Virus record (IMG/VR): IMGVR_UViG_3300046779_001735
Coordinates: 1-64,000 of that record
Direction: 5' to 3' (one strand)
DNA: 64,000 nt
Source: a virus
The notes under the pieces were generated by a model. It worked only from the letters and a program-made list of their open reading frames with translations, was not told where the DNA came from and ran no database searches. This document shows positions 3,707 to 11,811 of this stretch, one piece after another (position 1 is the first letter of the stretch; each line of letters begins with the position of its first letter). Both the position numbers and the translations under genes were made by a program.

Positions 3707-4843
3707 ATGTTTTTGACCTTGCGACACAGACCGGATCTTAGATTGGTGCCAAGTTCGGTGGGCGCGATATCTGAATTTTTTCCAGACACCAAACTGTTGA
3801 TTTTGACTCTGCAGGACCTTAATGGAGTGAGTCGCATCACTTGGTTTGATCTGTACAATCGCATCATTAAGTGTGTACACGAGCACAAGATAGAGTTAAT
3901 TGTGATAGATCGCACTGGCGAGCCCAAGATCTTGGACGAACCTGAACACTATGGACCCAATGACATCACCATAGCAGATTCACTTAGATCTGTGTGCGCC
4001 ACGGTAATTGTAACCGATGACTATACCTATTACAATCAGTGTCATGAGCACGTGGTCTGCTTTCCCTATAATATTTGGCTACTAGCATCACGCAGTGTGG
4101 ACCGGTACGAAAACTTTCACGGGAATGGGTACGACACAGGTCTGCCAAAAATTCGTTCCTTAATGTGTTTGAATAGAAAGTTGCATTGGCACAGGATTTT
4201 TCTATACCTGGAACTTCGCAAACGTGACTGGTTACATCGAGTGGATTTCAGTTTTATACTTGGCAATGATCGAATGGACACAGATTTCCTTCTGCGCGAT
4301 CTAACTCACCAAGAAATTGACCAAATGCATCTAGCCAGCAATGAACTGCCAATTGTGTTGTCCGAAGAACAGGTTAGTGACACCGGCAACTTTACATCCA
4401 ACGGCAGTACACAGCATTGGACTAGTGTGAATCTTCCGGTTTACAATCGCACAGCCATGAATCTAGTTACTGAAACCAGTTTGAATCACGGAATTTTGCT
4501 CACAGAAAAAGCAGTGAAGCCTATCATGGCCTATCAAATTCCTGTGATACTAGCAGCACCCGGAGCCAATGCATGGCTACAGAGTCTTGGTTTTGACCTA
4601 TTTGCAGACTTTGTGCCCTGGGCACATTGGGACAGCGCAAAAGATCAACGACAAAAAATTCTCAGTATGGTGAACTGGCTAGACACTGTGATGCAGGATC
4701 CAGAACAAATAGTTTCATATCACAGACAGAGTCATCACAGACTACGGGCAAACAAGCAACTATTTCACAGCGCAGAGTTTGTCAGACAACTTGAACAGCC
4801 TATTAGAGCCTATGCTCAGTCCATTTCGTCCACTTCTACATAG
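3707..4843 (+). CDS. Hypothetical protein, possibly glycosyltransferase-like
   Basis: CLNRK..WHR, NLVTET..LTEKAVKP and LGFDLF motifs resemble GT-B/GT10-like phage proteins. Ends in TAG. Confidence 0.55.
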   Translation: MFLTLRHRPDLRLVPSSVGAISEFFPDTKLLILTLQDLNGVSRITWFDLYNRIIKCVHEHKIELIVIDRTGEPKILDEPEHYGPNDITIADSLRSVCATVIVTDDYTYYNQCHEHVVCFPYNIWLLASRSVDRYENFHGNGYDTGLPKIRSLMCLNRKLHWHRIFLYLELRKRDWLHRVDFSFILGNDRMDTDFLLRDLTHQEIDQMHLASNELPIVLSEEQVSDTGNFTSNGSTQHWTSVNLPVYNRTAMNLVTETSLNHGILLTEKAVKPIMAYQIPVILAAPGANAWLQSLGFDLFADFVPWAHWDSAKDQRQKILSMVNWLDTVMQDPEQIVSYHRQSHHRLRANKQLFHSAEFVRQLEQPIRAYAQSISSTST

Positions 4844-5382
4844 TCATCCTCGTCAATATAGGTACCCGGGGCATCATAAGACTTGTAGTAGGCTTCGTTT
4901 GGTTTCATAATCCTAAAAGCATTTTCGTATTTCAAAGCAGCAAAGGTTGCTTCATCTTTTTTAAGCAGATCGCACACTACAAAGCTGGTGCCACAGTCGC
5001 CTCTTACGTTTTTAAAAGGTGAATGTTTGAACTCGTTTTTGCAAAGAGCGTCATGAAACTTGCTTCCATAATTGAAAATTATCCTGGTAATACCCAGCTT
5101 TTGATTACGCAGTCTAATCTTGTCCACAACAGATAAGTTTGAGATTTCAGCTTCGTTCACATCGTTGATGGTCAACAAACATTCTCGGAACTTGATGCTG
5201 CCTTTGGTATGGGAGTTGTCTGGAGTTTCTTTGGTACTCCATGGGATACTAGCAGTGACGTGGTCTACGTAAAAAGTTTCACCGTGTGTTTTTACGACCC
5301 ACATTGGGATGGTTTCGTCTTCTAGGTGTTTCTTGTTAAAATGAAACACTAGGTCTTTACATGCGTATTCAATCTATGACAT
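4816..5382 (-). CDS. Hypothetical protein with an in-frame TAG at codon 3 (MS*IEYACKDLVFHFNKK..., 188 codons); candidate amber read-through gene
   Basis: Minus strand reads AAGGA-AAATAAA-ATG TCA TAG ATT GAA TAC GCA TGT AAA GAC CTA GTG, in frame with the 177-aa ORF 4816-5349. Confidence 0.75.
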
Positions 5383-5383
5383 T

Positions 5384-5560
5384 TTATTTTCCTTTAAATT
5401 TACTACATATCAGTTCAAAATCTCTTTGACGCCCTTGAACTTGTCCGTAACTTGCAGTTGGATAACGTTCTCTATACTCTGTTTTTTGTTGTTCTAAACA
5501 GTCTTCATATGGGCGCGAACACCCTGCTACTAGAGTCAAACACATTAAGACGTACCGCAT
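5384..5560 (-). CDS. Small predicted lipoprotein, 58 aa (MRYVLMCLTLVAGCSRPYEDCLEQQKTEYRERYPTASYGQVQGRQRDFELICSKFKGK)
   Basis: AGGA before the ATG; basic residue, hydrophobic stretch and lipobox VAG-C. Stop is 1 nt before the next ATG. Too short for the ORF track. Confidence 0.7.
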   Translation of the reverse strand: MRYVLMCLTLVAGCSRPYEDCLEQQKTEYRERYPTASYGQVQGRQRDFELICSKFKGK

Positions 5561-5575
5561 TGCAGTTTCCTAAAG

Positions 5576-5672
5576 TGACGGTTTTTTTGTGTCAGGAAAC
5601 CGTCAAACCCCGTGAGCGCAGCCCATCCCGTTTTCGCGTCAGCGGAGCCGGAATATGGATACGGGTCCGGCT
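5576..5672 (-). ncRNA. Structured RNA: three helices plus two potential loop-loop pseudoknots, directly 3' of the tRNA
   Basis: P1 AGCCGGA/TCCGGCT; P2 CCG(C)TGACGC/GCG(C)TCACGG; P3 TGACGGTTT/AAACCGTCA. The P2 loop segment CGGGATGGG is complementary to the P3 loop (TCCTG) and the P1 loop (TCCAT). Confidence 0.65.
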
Positions 5673-5678
5673 TAAAAC

Positions 5679-5751
5679 TGGTGCACTAGATGGGAATCGA
5701 ACCCACTACTTAGAGTTTTAGAGGCTCCGGGCCGACCGTCGGCACTAGTGC
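5679..5751 (-). tRNA. Amber suppressor tRNA (anticodon CUA), 73 nt, encoded CCA, short D-arm
   Basis: GCACTAG-T-GCCG ACGGT CGGC-CC-GGAGC CTCTAAA ACTCT-AAGTA-GTGGG TTCGATT CCCAT-CTAGTGC-A-CCA. 7-bp acceptor stem, canonical T-loop, anticodon loop CU-CUA-AA. Confidence 0.88.
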
Positions 5752-5758
5752 ATACGTA

Positions 5759-5787
5759 ATTATGCCAGAAATCTAAACACAGTTCAA
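5759..5787 (-). promoter_or_regulatory. Sigma70-like promoter for the tRNA operon
   Basis: Minus strand TTGAAC-17 nt-CATAAT, ending 7 nt before tRNA G1. Confidence 0.6.
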
Positions 5788-5815
5788 ATAATTTGGAAAA
5801 CCACTAAATACTATT

Positions 5816-5866
5816 AACGCATCCTGCGTTTTATGCGGATACCACCGCGTAGTGGCTGAAACCCAC
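5816..5866 (+). promoter_or_regulatory. Structured 5' leader with three tandem hairpins after a late promoter
   Basis: AACGCA/TGCGTT, TATGCGG/CCGCGTA and GTGG/CCAC lie between TAAATA (5805) and the AAGGAG Shine-Dalgarno. Confidence 0.5.
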
Positions 5867-5892
5867 ATCGGACTTCTTTAAGGAGAAAACAA

Positions 5893-6639
5893 ATGGGACG
5901 TCCTCTCAAAATTCAAAAATATTCAACAAATTCTGGTGTTGGTTCACCAGGTGCAGCAGTAGGCATTGACATTGGTTTTCCTAACTTTGGATCGTTAACT
6001 GATCCAGTATACAACACTAATCCTGAAACTCTAAGTGCAGCAGATTACCTTGGCGTTGTGGGTGGTCTTCGCACCACAGCAACATCAGCTACGAATCCCG
6101 TGATCAAGTGTATCGTAAACATTGCAAACAGTTACACAGGGGTAGACGATGGTGTAATTCTGCGTCAAAAAGGGTCACACAAATTTCTAGTGGCTACAAA
6201 CACAGCTATTGATCCTGCCAATGCATTGACCGGTGTGAGTGTGCGTATTGCTACTCTAGGCGACACAAACTGGAATGCCATGGGCGCACCAGTGGGTGCA
6301 GCAGTGGGAACTATCTTTTTGGTAACAGCAGCCGCAGGTGCCGGAACCACAGGTACTTGTCAGGAAGTTGGAGTTTGTGTGCTAGATAATGATGCAACCC
6401 CAGCCGCTGGTCTTATGGCCATTGGATTCTCAGTAGGCGATTCAACTATCACTTACATCAGCAAATTAACCAACAAGTGGTTACTTGACTGGACTGGTGG
6501 CAACGGATACACACAATCTGACATTACCGGTGATGTTCGTTACGTGTCCAACTTCTTCACTGATGAAGGAACTGTTATCAAGTCTGGTACTGCTGATACT
6601 ACAGTTATCCCAGGTCAACTTGAAAAATGGACTAGTTAA
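5893..6639 (+). CDS. Hypothetical late (probably virion) protein
   Basis: Late promoter and strong Shine-Dalgarno; G/A/T-rich; MGRPLK start and RQKGSHKFLV motif. Confidence 0.7.
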   Translation: MGRPLKIQKYSTNSGVGSPGAAVGIDIGFPNFGSLTDPVYNTNPETLSAADYLGVVGGLRTTATSATNPVIKCIVNIANSYTGVDDGVILRQKGSHKFLVATNTAIDPANALTGVSVRIATLGDTNWNAMGAPVGAAVGTIFLVTAAAGAGTTGTCQEVGVCVLDNDATPAAGLMAIGFSVGDSTITYISKLTNKWLLDWTGGNGYTQSDITGDVRYVSNFFTDEGTVIKSGTADTTVIPGQLEKWTS

Positions 6640-8705: not shown

Positions 8706-9787
8706 TGGCATTTTTTCCAACAAGCCCAGTAAATGGTCAGCAGGCCAATGTTGGCAACATTACCTATCAATGGAGCAACGCTACTAGTTCATGGAACAGA
8801 GTAGGCACAACTGTTACTCAGTTGGTTGACGGTATCACCGTAAATATCACTGGTAATCTAAATGCCACTGGCACTGGGCAACAGACCTTTGCTGGTCGCA
8901 TCAGCTCTGGTGGTAACATAACAGCCACAGGAAATATTCAAGGATCACACCTTACTATTAATCAAACCATATCAGCTGGCGGCAATATTGTAACCAATGG
9001 TGGTTTGACGGTGCTAGGCGCTACTTCAAATGTAGTAGCCTTGTATGCTACGAGTGTAGATGCTACGTCACAAATCTCAGTAGGCACAGCTACTCTTACG
9101 CCTACACAACTTAGTGTTGGTAATGTGTCTGCTTCAAACGCAGTGGTCTCGCCTTATGTTTCAACCACAACCTTGTTGGCATCAAATGCTGCGTTAACCA
9201 CCGCTACAGTAACAGGTAATATCAATGCTGGCAACGTTGTAGGCGGCAACATTTTTGGTAGTGGCGGCAACATCACAGGTAATATCACTTTAGGCAATAT
9301 CAGTACCACAGGCAATATTGATGCAGTGGGCAATGTCAGTGGTACTTTTATTTTAGGTAATGGCTTCTTTCTTACTGGGGTGCAAACAGGCGGCGGAGGT
9401 GGTGGAACAGGTTCTCGTGCCAACATTTCTACTACCATTGGGCCTATATCTAATGCAGTGAGTGTAAATGCAGATCTCGCAGGTTACAAGGGCTATGCTC
9501 TTTACAAAGTAACCACAAGTGCTGCAAGTTGGGTAAGATTATATACTAGCAACACAGCTAGAACCAACGATTCAACTAGAACCATAGATGTTGATCCTCA
9601 ACCTGGTGCAGGTGTAATAGCTGAAATTATTAGCTCAGGTGCAAACGTAGTAACAGTGAGTCCGGGCGCAGTTGGTTTTAATGACGATACCCCGGTATCA
9701 AACAATGTACCAATAACAATTACAAATATCAGCGGTTCACCAGCAACTATCACAGTAACGTTAACTATGTTACCACTGGAGTCATAA
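8705..9787 (+). CDS. Fibre/virion structural protein
   Basis: FPTSPVNGQ..YQW anchor motif, GN repeats, C-terminal KGYALYKV..WVRLY..DPQPGAGVIAE domain. Confidence 0.7.
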   Translation: MAFFPTSPVNGQQANVGNITYQWSNATSSWNRVGTTVTQLVDGITVNITGNLNATGTGQQTFAGRISSGGNITATGNIQGSHLTINQTISAGGNIVTNGGLTVLGATSNVVALYATSVDATSQISVGTATLTPTQLSVGNVSASNAVVSPYVSTTTLLASNAALTTATVTGNINAGNVVGGNIFGSGGNITGNITLGNISTTGNIDAVGNVSGTFILGNGFFLTGVQTGGGGGGTGSRANISTTIGPISNAVSVNADLAGYKGYALYKVTTSAASWVRLYTSNTARTNDSTRTIDVDPQPGAGVIAEIISSGANVVTVSPGAVGFNDDTPVSNNVPITITNISGSPATITVTLTMLPLES

Positions 9788-11811
9788 TGATTATTGATGG
9801 GATCAACGATCCAGAAGAAATTAGAAGAATTCTAGGCGACAATCCTCATCCACAGGCATTGCAAGAATTCACTCAACAGTACATTGGTATGAATCAGCCT
9901 TTGGTTATTGAACTAGGCCAAGAGTATCCTTATACAGTAACTTTGCATCGCGATATTAATCAGGAAAATTTTTACGACGAAATGGAAAGCGCAGGCAGTC
10001 GTGGCTATGTGCCTGAACGAGTAGTTGAGTGTTCTCAACGCATGCCCATGTGTCGTAGCACAGAGTACCTTTTGACTCCAGAAGAAGCAGCGGGTCTTGA
10101 ACTTGATCCTAGAGTCATGGCCGTGGAAATTGATCCACAACATCATGGTATCCAAGCTAGACCTCTAGTAAGTCAATACAGTGCAGGATGGGATAAAACT
10201 GGTAATCTTGATCCTATATTTAAAAATTGGGGGCTGTTCCGGCAGTGGTTCCGTCGCCAGATTCCAAATTGGGGCGGCGGTGGGCAACAAGATCCCACAC
10301 AGGCTGGCACAATTACTTTGACCAGCACCGGAAAAAATGTTGATGTGGTGGTGTTTGATGGCAACATTGATCCTGCACATCCAGAATATCAAAGAAATGC
10401 AGATGGCACAGGCGGCACTCGAGTGAACCAATTCAACTGGTGGAGTCTTAATCCCCAGGTCACAGGACAAGCAGCAGGAACCTACAACTACACCGCAGGT
10501 GTTGCTGGAAATAATGGTCACGGTTTTCATGTGGCTGGAATCTTTGCAGGTAACACTCAAGGTTGGGCCCGTGATTCTACTATCTATAATATTTCTCCCT
10601 ACGGCGAACAAACCAATGGTACATCTACACCAAGTCTCACGCAGTTAGTGAATTATATTAGATACTGGCACAACAATATCAAAACTGTGAATCCAGAAAC
10701 CGGGGTCAAAAACCCCACTGTGGTCAACATGAGTTTTGGTCTTTTTGGTAATCAATTTGCTAGAGAAAACGGCGGTCGAATTAACGTTAACCAACTATAT
10801 TACCGCGGTGTCACTCAAAACTATCCAGCATCAGCTCCTCCAGGTCAATCAAGTCTCCAAGTAGCCTACAATGGTAACTGGACTCCTCAACAGTGGTACA
10901 ATGCAGGTGTTCAGCTGTATAGTGGATATATTGATGCGTATGGTGTGATTTTGTATTTTTATACAGCTCAAGACACCGCGGCAGAACAGGCAATTATTGA
11001 CGGTGTTAACGAAGGTATTATTTGGTGTGCAGCAGCAGGTAATCAGTGGAACGAAGCTGGATTTTTCAGCGATCATCCTAATTACGTTAATTATGTAAAT
11101 CAGGCCTATGCACAGATTGGCAGTGTAGTTTTATATCGGGCTAGTTATCACAATAGAATGCCAGTACCTGCATCAGCAGAGTCAGGTCGCGGTACTGCTA
11201 ACTTTAAAACTATCTGTGTGGTTGGCAATATTAGTGTACAAGCTAACCAGTCCTTGAGTCAAACCAGTTCTGCAGGCAACAAAGTCACGGTGTGGGCACC
11301 TGGTGAAAATATCATGAGTGCTTATAACGCAGCTGGTATTCCTGATCCAAGAAATGCTGCATTCTATATTACCAAACTCACAGGCACGAGCATGGCCAGT
11401 CCGCAGATCGCAGGTATCATAGCTTGCATGGCAGAACTGTATCCGGACAAGCGCATGATGGATTACATTTCTTGGATCAATGCCTATGCCAACTTAAACA
11501 ATGTGCCTGATCTTGGCATACCTTTACCACCTGGGCCTGTTAGTAATTTTGGCCTACGCGAGGCTCCCAATGTATTTGGATTGTACTACAACGATCGCCC
11601 TATTAACGGTAACACATGGCCTCAAAAACGCTGGTGGATACGTCCTACTCAGGGTCTAGCTTATCCTCGACAAACCATAAGACGCAGAAGCACTGTGGTT
11701 TCAACTCCTGCAGCTCCGGCAGCTGACAGAGTGTTCACAGCCAGCGTGCGAACAGACAGCACGGCAGGGCCAATTATTGCTACTACCGGAAACATAACAA
11801 TAACAGGGTAA
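9787..11811 (+). CDS. Subtilisin-like (S8) serine peptidase, probably virion-associated
   Basis: Catalytic set VDVVVFDG, HGFHVAG, AAAGN, GTSMASP. Confidence 0.9.
   Translation: MIIDGINDPEEIRRILGDNPHPQALQEFTQQYIGMNQPLVIELGQEYPYTVTLHRDINQENFYDEMESAGSRGYVPERVVECSQRMPMCRSTEYLLTPEEAAGLELDPRVMAVEIDPQHHGIQARPLVSQYSAGWDKTGNLDPIFKNWGLFRQWFRRQIPNWGGGGQQDPTQAGTITLTSTGKNVDVVVFDGNIDPAHPEYQRNADGTGGTRVNQFNWWSLNPQVTGQAAGTYNYTAGVAGNNGHGFHVAGIFAGNTQGWARDSTIYNISPYGEQTNGTSTPSLTQLVNYIRYWHNNIKTVNPETGVKNPTVVNMSFGLFGNQFARENGGRINVNQLYYRGVTQNYPASAPPGQSSLQVAYNGNWTPQQWYNAGVQLYSGYIDAYGVILYFYTAQDTAAEQAIIDGVNEGIIWCAAAGNQWNEAGFFSDHPNYVNYVNQAYAQIGSVVLYRASYHNRMPVPASAESGRGTANFKTICVVGNISVQANQSLSQTSSAGNKVTVWAPGENIMSAYNAAGIPDPRNAAFYITKLTGTSMASPQIAGIIACMAELYPDKRMMDYISWINAYANLNNVPDLGIPLPPGPVSNFGLREAPNVFGLYYNDRPINGNTWPQKRWWIRPTQGLAYPRQTIRRRSTVVSTPAAPAADRVFTASVRTDSTAGPIIATTGNITITG

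Follow-up and report, generated by a model that had tools for sequence, protein, structure and literature searches.

We found that one gene of a large freshwater phage is probably expressed only when a suppressor transfer RNA (tRNA) encoded by the same phage is at work. The gene lies in the window analyzed here, a 64,000-nucleotide stretch forming the first 64 kb of the 156,620-bp IMG/VR virus record IMGVR_UViG_3300046779_001735, which is estimated to be 45% complete. The third codon of this gene is an in-frame TAG, and upstream of it on the same strand is a tRNA gene with a CUA anticodon, of the amber suppressor type. The phage is a T4-like jumbo phage, and its contig encodes T4-type tail proteins, including a gp15-like protein and a sheath protein. 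Comparison of related sequences shows that the coding frame extends through the TAG, that this codon does not vary, that the gene and the tRNA are linked, and that the standard code is used elsewhere in the genome. On this basis, the protein is probably made only when the phage tRNA(CUA) overrides the UAG, which would serve as a one-codon translational gate.

All elements of the locus are on the minus strand. A consensus scan identified a sigma70-like promoter (TTGAAC-17-CATAAT, 5787-5759) with a TG preceding the -10 box, the end of which is approximately 7 nt from the 5' end of the tRNA. The tRNA of 73 nt (5751-5679, Rfam RF00005 model) is followed by a spacer (5678-5561) and by a predicted lipoprotein gene of 58 aa taken from the list of open reading frames (ORFs), with the lipobox LVAG/C and a TAA stop (5560-5384). 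A Shine-Dalgarno (SD) sequence, AAGGA (5394-5390), stands 7 nt 5' of an ATG at 5382, which is one base past the lipoprotein stop. This ATG opens a Met-Ser leader (ATG TCA, 5382-5377) that leads directly into the TAG at codon 3 (5376-5374), the proposed gate, after which the sequence continues ATT GAA TAC. The frame remains open for 185 codons beyond the TAG, until a TGA stop (4818-4816) ends the 188-codon gene. The protein is predicted to comprise an N-terminal beta-rich domain (residues 4-84, 5373-5131; AlphaFold2 model) and a C-terminal alpha/beta, ferredoxin-like domain with an acidic tail (residues 85-177 for the domain, 5130-4819 with the tail; whole-protein model). The first-pass annotation of this DNA had listed the promoter, the tRNA, the lipoprotein ORF, and the SD-ATG-TCA-TAG arrangement, and each of them was found where it had been placed.

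We then compared this locus with its relatives. A total of 207 related loci were found in IMG/VR, and 80 of them, 59-86% identical and representing 44 distinct DNA contexts, were examined. In every one of the 80, TAG was located directly 5' of the motif I-E-[YF]-A-C-[KR]-D-x-V-F-H-F-N-K, and neither TAA nor TGA was ever found in its place. Each locus was characterized by an SD sequence, an ATG, 1-10 non-conserved leader codons, and the TAG, which fell at codon 3 to 12. In all relatives the SD sequence was 7-8 nt from the ATG at any leader length, whereas its distance from the TAG changed with the leader. The codons 3' of the TAG were fixed at their first two positions and free at the third (Ile as ATT/ATC/ATA, Ala as GCA/GCT/GCG, Val as GTG/GTT/GTC), and the four-fold sites beside the TAG (Ala GCN and Val GTN) were saturated across the 44 contexts. 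Because eight of the nine single-base changes to TAG would give a sense codon, and because neighboring neutral sites are saturated, the invariance of the TAG argues for selection on the stop itself. Judged by these alignments, the arrangement is far beyond chance.

The same comparison bears on where the gene begins. The GTG at 5349 cannot be the start codon, since 26 of the 44 distinct contexts have GTT or GTC in its place, and the case for it had already been considered weak. That assessment was borne out, as no SD sequence precedes the GTG and a strong one precedes the upstream ATG. The stretch IEYACKD upstream of VFHFNKK, whose conservation had been left to be checked, was conserved among the 80 loci, and homologues beginning at the VFHF position, which would have spoken against the proposal, were not seen. 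Database annotations of the family fall into two kinds. Callers using table 11 truncate the gated gene, with calls that start at VFHF or MWVV, and code-switching callers assign code 15 to short contigs and read the TAG as Q (P0004-P0122). Many database homologues begin with M-x-Q-IEYACKD, and their 'Q' is this same TAG, translated by gene callers that applied code 15 (flag with_TAG=Q), and not a sense codon. The split is a systematic annotation artefact arising from a single TAG.

We next assessed the tRNA and its association with the gated gene. The window copy scored 32.5 bits against Rfam RF00005 (gathering score 29) and possesses an anticodon loop of C-U-CUA-A-A, a 7-bp acceptor stem, A73 as the discriminator base, a CCA end encoded in the gene, and a canonical T arm, GGTTCGATTCC. 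ARAGORN detected a tRNA(CUA) on the strand of the gated gene within the flanks of 62 loci, and a pattern search added three more, all with a short D arm like that of the window copy. Seven further loci carry almost no upstream DNA and stand outside the co-occurrence count. Two complete genomes without a tRNA(CUA) in the surrounding 3 kb have it farther away, one at 4.7 kb on the upstream side and the other at 8 kb on the downstream side. The TAG and the tRNA(CUA) co-occur in nearly all loci with enough flanking DNA, which answers in the affirmative a question posed at the first pass. Most relatives possess a TTGACN-17-TATAAT promoter that ends approximately 7 nt before the 5' end of the tRNA. 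The distance from the end of the tRNA to the gated ATG is only 18-31 nt in 12 loci, which indicates that the tRNA and the gated gene are co-transcribed.

Among 47 distinct tRNA(CUA) sequences, G1-C72, A73, CCA, and the CUA anticodon were kept within a YU-CUA-AA loop, and the acceptor, anticodon, and T stems showed compensatory changes in the alignment, as judged by eye. A comparison with the 31 other tRNAs of a complete relative gave no clear parent isoacceptor. An initiator-type tRNA was also considered and was excluded, as G1 and C72 form a pair and a GGG/CCC run is absent from the anticodon stem. ARAGORN labels such tRNAs 'tRNA-Pyl', and the same label appears in GenBank for the Rhizobium phage RHph_I1_18. 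The hallmarks of the pyrrolysine tRNA (tRNAPyl), namely a 6-bp anticodon stem, a 3-nt variable loop, and the absence of G18G19 and of T-psi-C, were not found in the phage tRNA(CUA), whose T loop reads GGTTCGA and whose anticodon stem measures 5 bp, with a variable loop of 4-5 nt and GG in the D loop. The 'tRNA-Pyl' labels in phage records are misleading.

The genetic code of the phage was also examined. ORFs of at least 150 aa under table 11 cover 84% of the contig and 85% of a 99%-complete relative of 343,632 bp, which itself carries the gated gene. Near-complete genomes among the relatives with this gene range from 331 to 364 kb and have as many as 40 tRNA genes. Reading TAG as sense gained no more coding sequence than reading TAA or TGA as sense in either genome, and in-frame joins of two long ORFs were no more common across TAG than across TAA or TGA. 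The phage is not recoded and uses the standard code, including in the portion of the genome beyond its own contig, since the near-complete relative likewise gains nothing from TAG as sense. The view that the window is not recoded was thus extended to the 156-kb contig and the 344-kb relative. The genes ending at 4843, 7280, 43594, 57668, and 59071 do end in TAG, as had been reported, and TAG is the stop of 29 of the contig's 167 genes and, in the 344-kb relative, of 23 out of 350 (approximately 7-17% of genes), with no special downstream context. Many genes broken by in-frame TAG, as expected under code 15, were not found; a phage-encoded tRNA(CUA), also expected under that code, was.

Both genomes were additionally scanned for an SD-ATG, a short leader, a stop, and then at least 100 sense codons. 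The scan recovered the gated gene, and its other matches were no more common for TAG than for TAA or TGA; nearly all of them had an ordinary start codon shortly after the stop. Two further TAG matches in the 344-kb relative lacked a start for 13 and 20 codons. With these two set aside, the gated gene was in both genomes the only leader-TAG ORF not followed by an ATG, GTG, or TTG that relatives share. The comparison, with a conserved TAG, a linked tRNA, and a genome that is not recoded, supports the earlier idea of one protein that needs the phage's own suppressor tRNA.

Homologues without the TAG suggest what the stop is for. An exhaustive profile search recovered distant homologues, several of which start with M-[IV]-E-[IL]-A-C-K. 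Two TAG-less homologues (P0124 and P0133, 44-54% identical) read SD-7 nt-ATG-[GTT/ATC]-GAA, with the ATG exactly at the TAG position, and other homologues possess 1-4 ordinary extra residues at the start. Because homologues begin with Met at the TAG position, the residue inserted at the UAG is dispensable for the protein, and the leader and TAG together are a regulatory add-on to a protein that is complete in itself. A regulatory role is thereby favored over a special amino acid. With the stop at the very start of the ORF, failed read-through costs only a di- to decapeptide. The first-pass annotation had offered a relic of TAG recoding as an alternative, which is unlikely, since the TAG-less homologues put their start codon at that same position. 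No tRNA(CUA) was seen in the available DNA around P0124 and P0133. A wider search from P0124 gave only four loci, so that the negative side of the co-occurrence is made up of a few short contigs.

The N-terminal beta domain was also encountered in other jumbo phages, alone (approximately 85 aa) or as the C-terminal half of proteins of approximately 175 aa. The cultured RHph_I1_18 carries an unannotated short form, M-S-E-F-M-TAG-N-E-S-C-R-E-V-I-F-H-F-N-K, with an annotated 'tRNA-Pyl(cta)' 33 nt downstream of this TAG-gated gene. A metagenomic short form with the same leader-TAG design has a tRNA(CUA) 770 nt upstream. Among the Rhizobiales jumbo phages, the Sinorhizobium phage Phosso and the Agrobacterium phage Atu_ph07 carry a TAG-less long form of the beta-domain protein two genes after Pth2, and in these phages the early stop is found in the Pth2 gene. 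The real start of Phosso Pth2 (annotated 'peptidyl tRNA hydrolase'; L125 5991-6486; PV764938 176490-176985) reads AGGAG-7 nt-ATG AAG TAT TAG GTT, a leader of 3 codons and a TAG, and the PTH2 domain is matched at E = 3e-20 over residues 41-157 past the TAG. A 480-kb IMG/VR relative of Phosso has the Pth2 leader M-T-Y-N-TAG-V-E. The orthologous Atu_ph07 Pth2 (annotated 'hypothetical protein'; L104 1432-1881; MF403008) possesses a leader of 6 codons followed by TGA, M-I-G-E-H-F-TGA-I-N-Y. The annotated Pth2 starts in both Phosso and Atu_ph07 cut into the Pfam domain.

The suppressor tRNAs of these phages differ in the same way as their early stops. The tRNA clusters of Phosso and its 480-kb relative contain tRNA(CUA) and no tRNA(UCA), with two tRNA(CUA) genes in Phosso, and Atu_ph07 possesses a 75-nt tRNA(UCA) and no tRNA(CUA). 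The type of early stop thus changes together with the suppressor anticodon of the phage, a covariation that is predicted by suppressor read-through and not by reinitiation of translation after the stop. No Pth2 was found in the freshwater clade, where the gate is on the beta-domain protein itself. A further locus, L131, has a TAG-gated Pth2-like gene that shares 8 nt with the start of the next gene, which encodes a short beta-domain protein without a TAG. Two ORFs at this locus (8823-9623 and 9628-9984) both open with M-T-H-TAG-[IV]-S..EKLR[IV]VTRRD, and the second is the Pth2-like one. The first runs into unrelated Cys-rich sequence, as if the start of the gene had been duplicated around an inserted gene, and two tRNA(CUA) genes flank this region.

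Other translation-related genes were found nearby. A phage transfer-messenger RNA (tmRNA) of the betaproteobacterial (permuted, two-piece) type is located within 1-1.5 kb of the gated gene in several relatives (L046 1688-2077; L055 and L056 4402-4846; L061 4425-4820), and its type hints at the host. Of five phage records searched for ArfB-like RF-1 domain genes, only two contained them. A stretch of 1.3 kb directly behind Phosso's second tRNA(CUA) lacks any ORF or annotation (L126 1808-3103; record 446807-448102) and may be a non-coding RNA. The beta-domain family is consistently found in tRNA and translation neighborhoods, that is, beside tRNA, Pth2, and tmRNA genes, and this is the sole hint at its function.

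From these results, we propose the following sequence of events. The tRNA(CUA) would be transcribed by the host RNA polymerase, as it has its own sigma70-type promoter, and in many relatives the gated gene would be on the same transcript. Ribosomes would initiate at the SD-ATG at 5382 and reach the UAG at codon 3. If release factor 1 (RF1) prevails there, a dipeptide would be released and nothing more made; if the matured and charged tRNA(CUA) decodes the UAG, the full two-domain protein would follow. The stop would be a device that makes output depend on the capacity for UAG read-through, set by the suppressor tRNA against RF1. The tRNA is presumed to be expressed, charged, and able to read UAG. 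As to purpose, we favor sensing of, or feedback on, the balance between suppression and termination in the phage itself, with a logic like that of prfB, because the family is found in tRNA and translation neighborhoods and downstream of a similarly gated Pth2 in other phages. A more specific version, in which the tRNA(CUA) and the gated gene make up a self-contained, prfB-like feedback sensor of UAG decoding, the beta-domain protein itself acts on translation, termination, or the tRNA machinery, and the gated Pth2 is the same circuit in other jumbo phages, is considered less likely than not and is put forward tentatively. The roles as a timer or as a sensor of anticodon nucleases that had been suggested for the locus are speculation.

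Several observations weigh against a gate of this kind. The window tRNA is barely above the Rfam threshold, with a truncated D arm and a C31-A39 mismatch, and it was rejected by ARAGORN, which reported no tRNA in the window; the tRNAs of the relatives are clear cases. Five loci showed no tRNA(CUA) within 3 kb, the limit of the search. The 29 TAG-ended genes of the contig gave no signal of avoidance of TAG stops, and the tails past their stops were no shorter than those past TAA or TGA; a strong suppressor should be costly, and suppression should hence be weak or tolerated. At L131, the two tRNA(CUA) genes are located by a TAG-less short homologue, with the gate on the upstream Pth2-like gene. 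Lastly, the codon past the TAG is always AUU, AUC, or AUA among the 80 loci, which fits reinitiation at a near-cognate codon as well.

Under such termination-reinitiation, ATG TCA TAG would recruit ribosomes that restart at the adjacent AUH codon to give (f)Met-Glu-Tyr-Ala-Cys, and the tRNA would be unrelated or modulating. The uniform AUH codon, never AUG or a codon for another amino acid, is in keeping with this, as are the TAG-less homologues, which begin one residue upstream of it, and the strong-SD two-codon mini-ORFs known in phage lambda as bar minigenes. Reinitiation should be indifferent to the type of stop, yet TAG was found in all 80 loci, and the tight, conserved linkage to tRNA(CUA) would have to be coincidence. 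Between Phosso and Atu_ph07, the Pth2 stop moreover tracks the suppressor anticodon, and the early stop is followed by GTT in Phosso and by AAC in both RHph_I1_18 and locus L128. We consider this explanation unlikely. An improbable account, too, is that the tRNA is kept for other uses, such as decoding TAG stops of the host or the phage, host takeover, or as a decoy against tRNA-targeting defenses, with the TAG tolerated or locked in and no gate involved. The suppressor could indeed act on the 29 TAG-ended genes of the contig and on host genes, and Phosso possesses two tRNA(CUA) genes; for the Atu_ph07 tRNA(UCA), Attai et al. 2018 also assumed numerous targets (PMC6102473). A neutral TAG would be expected to revert, with eight sense codons available, or to arise in other genes, yet it is fixed at one position in one gene despite saturated synonymous sites, and no other gene shows a TAG gate. 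The placement of the tRNA 18-31 nt before the gated gene in 12 loci and the recurrence of the early-stop design on different genes and domain architectures also speak against it.

The remaining explanations are much less probable. That the UAG encodes a special or non-canonical residue, through a pyrrolysine-like pair of tRNA and codon, is suggested by the atypical D arm of the tRNA(CUA) and its dedication to one adjoining gene with a position-conserved UAG, and by the 'tRNA-Pyl' labels of ARAGORN and GenBank. The canonical T loop, the 5-bp anticodon stem, and the 7-nt loop are unlike tRNAPyl, the leader before the UAG is not conserved, and TAG-less homologues have the initiator Met or 1-4 ordinary residues at this place; we regard this explanation as very improbable. 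Table-11 gene callers annotate an ordinary gene with its start at GTG 5349 (Met27 being another candidate) and with the TAG as the preceding in-frame stop; this is the last explanation, and it is scarcely credible given that the nine codons from the TAG to the GTG are conserved as protein with synonymous variation, that the GTG itself varies, and that the strong SD sequence belongs to the upstream ATG. A gate opened by the phage's suppressor tRNA remains the reading we prefer.

We further characterized the gated protein through structure prediction. The whole-protein model (predicted local distance difference test score, pLDDT, 84) showed the beta-rich N domain and the ferredoxin-like C domain, and the N domain, which contains the motif FHFNKxHL..PMW..TKETPDN..TKGS, was modeled at pLDDT 93.6 with AlphaFold2. 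With VIA-align, the N domain gave weak OB-like matches in the PDB (Z <= 3.8) and the C domain gave RRM/ACT-like matches (Z <= 4.9); both matches are too weak for a functional assignment. No match for the gated protein was found in Pfam, in PHROGs, or in a profile search against PDB sequences, and Foldseek against the PDB, run with the whole model and with the N domain, gave no significant match. BFVD matched only uncharacterized phage proteins, and a feature search of the ESM Atlas gave no usable match. Two candidate relationships of the C-terminal domain were also tried. A diverged Pth2 was rejected, with no PF01981 match at E <= 10 and an hhalign probability of 0.1 against phage Pth2, and a relationship to a 107-aa neighbor in Phosso was also rejected.

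Other parts of the locus were less consistent among relatives. The spacer between the tRNA and the lipoprotein gene, described at the first pass as a structured RNA, folds at a minimum free energy of -36 kcal/mol compared to -32.3 +/- 3.3 for shuffled sequences (z = -1.1), which is not significant. It is missing in most relatives, and a search of Rfam ribozyme families against the RNA after the tRNA gave no match at E <= 10. The lipoprotein gene is an optional insert, as its protein is conserved only in the closest relatives (L003, L004, and L006), and other relatives carry unrelated small ORFs, or none, in its place. The proposed operon with a structured RNA and with translational coupling to the lipoprotein gene is not conserved.

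The tRNA, the lipoprotein gene, and the gated gene form a minus-strand island amid plus-strand genes. The gated gene overlaps by 28 nt, at the 3' ends, with a convergent plus-strand gene of 378 aa that ends in TAG (3707-4843). On the other side of the island, a freshwater-2 RNA motif (Rfam RF02980) was found on the plus strand at 5815-5895, with 69.9 bits against a gathering score of 49.9. It is located in the 5' untranslated region of a divergent gene (5893-6639), reaches the SD sequence and ATG of that gene, and is also present in the relative L003 (2457-2537).

The design was then compared with known systems. The gene prfB, which encodes release factor 2 (RF2), is autoregulated through an early in-frame UGA that is escaped by a +1 frameshift, the product being the release factor itself. 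The gated gene similarly has an early, conserved in-frame stop that would make synthesis depend on stop recognition, as a built-in sensor of termination. It differs from prfB in that the frame is unchanged from the ATG and the escape would be through a suppressor tRNA dedicated to it. Moreover, no release-factor or tRNA-enzyme domain is recognizable in the product. Without suppression, ATG-TCA-TAG behind a strong SD sequence is formally a two-codon minigene like those of lambda bar. The bar minigenes have no conserved protein in frame downstream and no link to a suppressor tRNA. The gated Pth2 genes of Phosso and Atu_ph07 share the arrangement of SD-ATG, 3-6 variable codons, a stop, a conserved protein, and a cognate suppressor tRNA; the product there is a peptidyl-tRNA hydrolase, and here it is the beta-domain protein fused to an extra C-terminal domain.

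In code-15 phages, including crAss-like, Lak, and other gut phages, TAG encodes Gln and the phages carry their own suppressor tRNAs (bioRxiv 10.1101/2021.08.26.457843, PMC9523058, PMC10879173). Our locus resembles these in that a phage tRNA(CUA) would read UAG in a standard-code host, and read-through has been proposed to time phage translation. However, code-15 phages possess TAG in tens to hundreds of mostly late genes and cannot use it as a stop, whereas here a single TAG is found at the 5' end of one gene beside the tRNA. Programmed read-through is also known from other viruses, such as for the Q-beta A1 protein and murine leukemia virus (MuLV) gag-pol (review PMC13517186), where one conserved stop is likewise decoded as sense to give a longer protein. 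Those systems rely on host near-cognate tRNAs at low efficiency and yield a C-terminal extension, whereas here the stop precedes the whole protein, the outcome would be all-or-nothing, and the virus supplies the cognate tRNA. A literature search found genome-wide recoding with suppressor tRNAs and found no single-gene, cis-linked amber gate. What is new here is the probable use of suppressor-tRNA decoding as a one-gene switch in a standard-code genome.

Phage suppressor tRNAs have so far been explained by genome-wide recoding or left without a target, as with the UCA tRNA noted in Atu_ph07 (PMC6102473). In the module described here, a suppressor tRNA would have one specific target, conserved among relatives, in a genome that uses the standard code. 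The cultured phages with the same design, RHph_I1_18, Phosso, and Atu_ph07, make the gate directly testable. If true, the module would be a natural counterpart of the amber-suppression switches engineered in synthetic biology: an orthogonal switch of tRNA and codon that is widespread in environmental jumbo phages and that would constitute a new way for a virus to tie one protein to the state of the translation apparatus.

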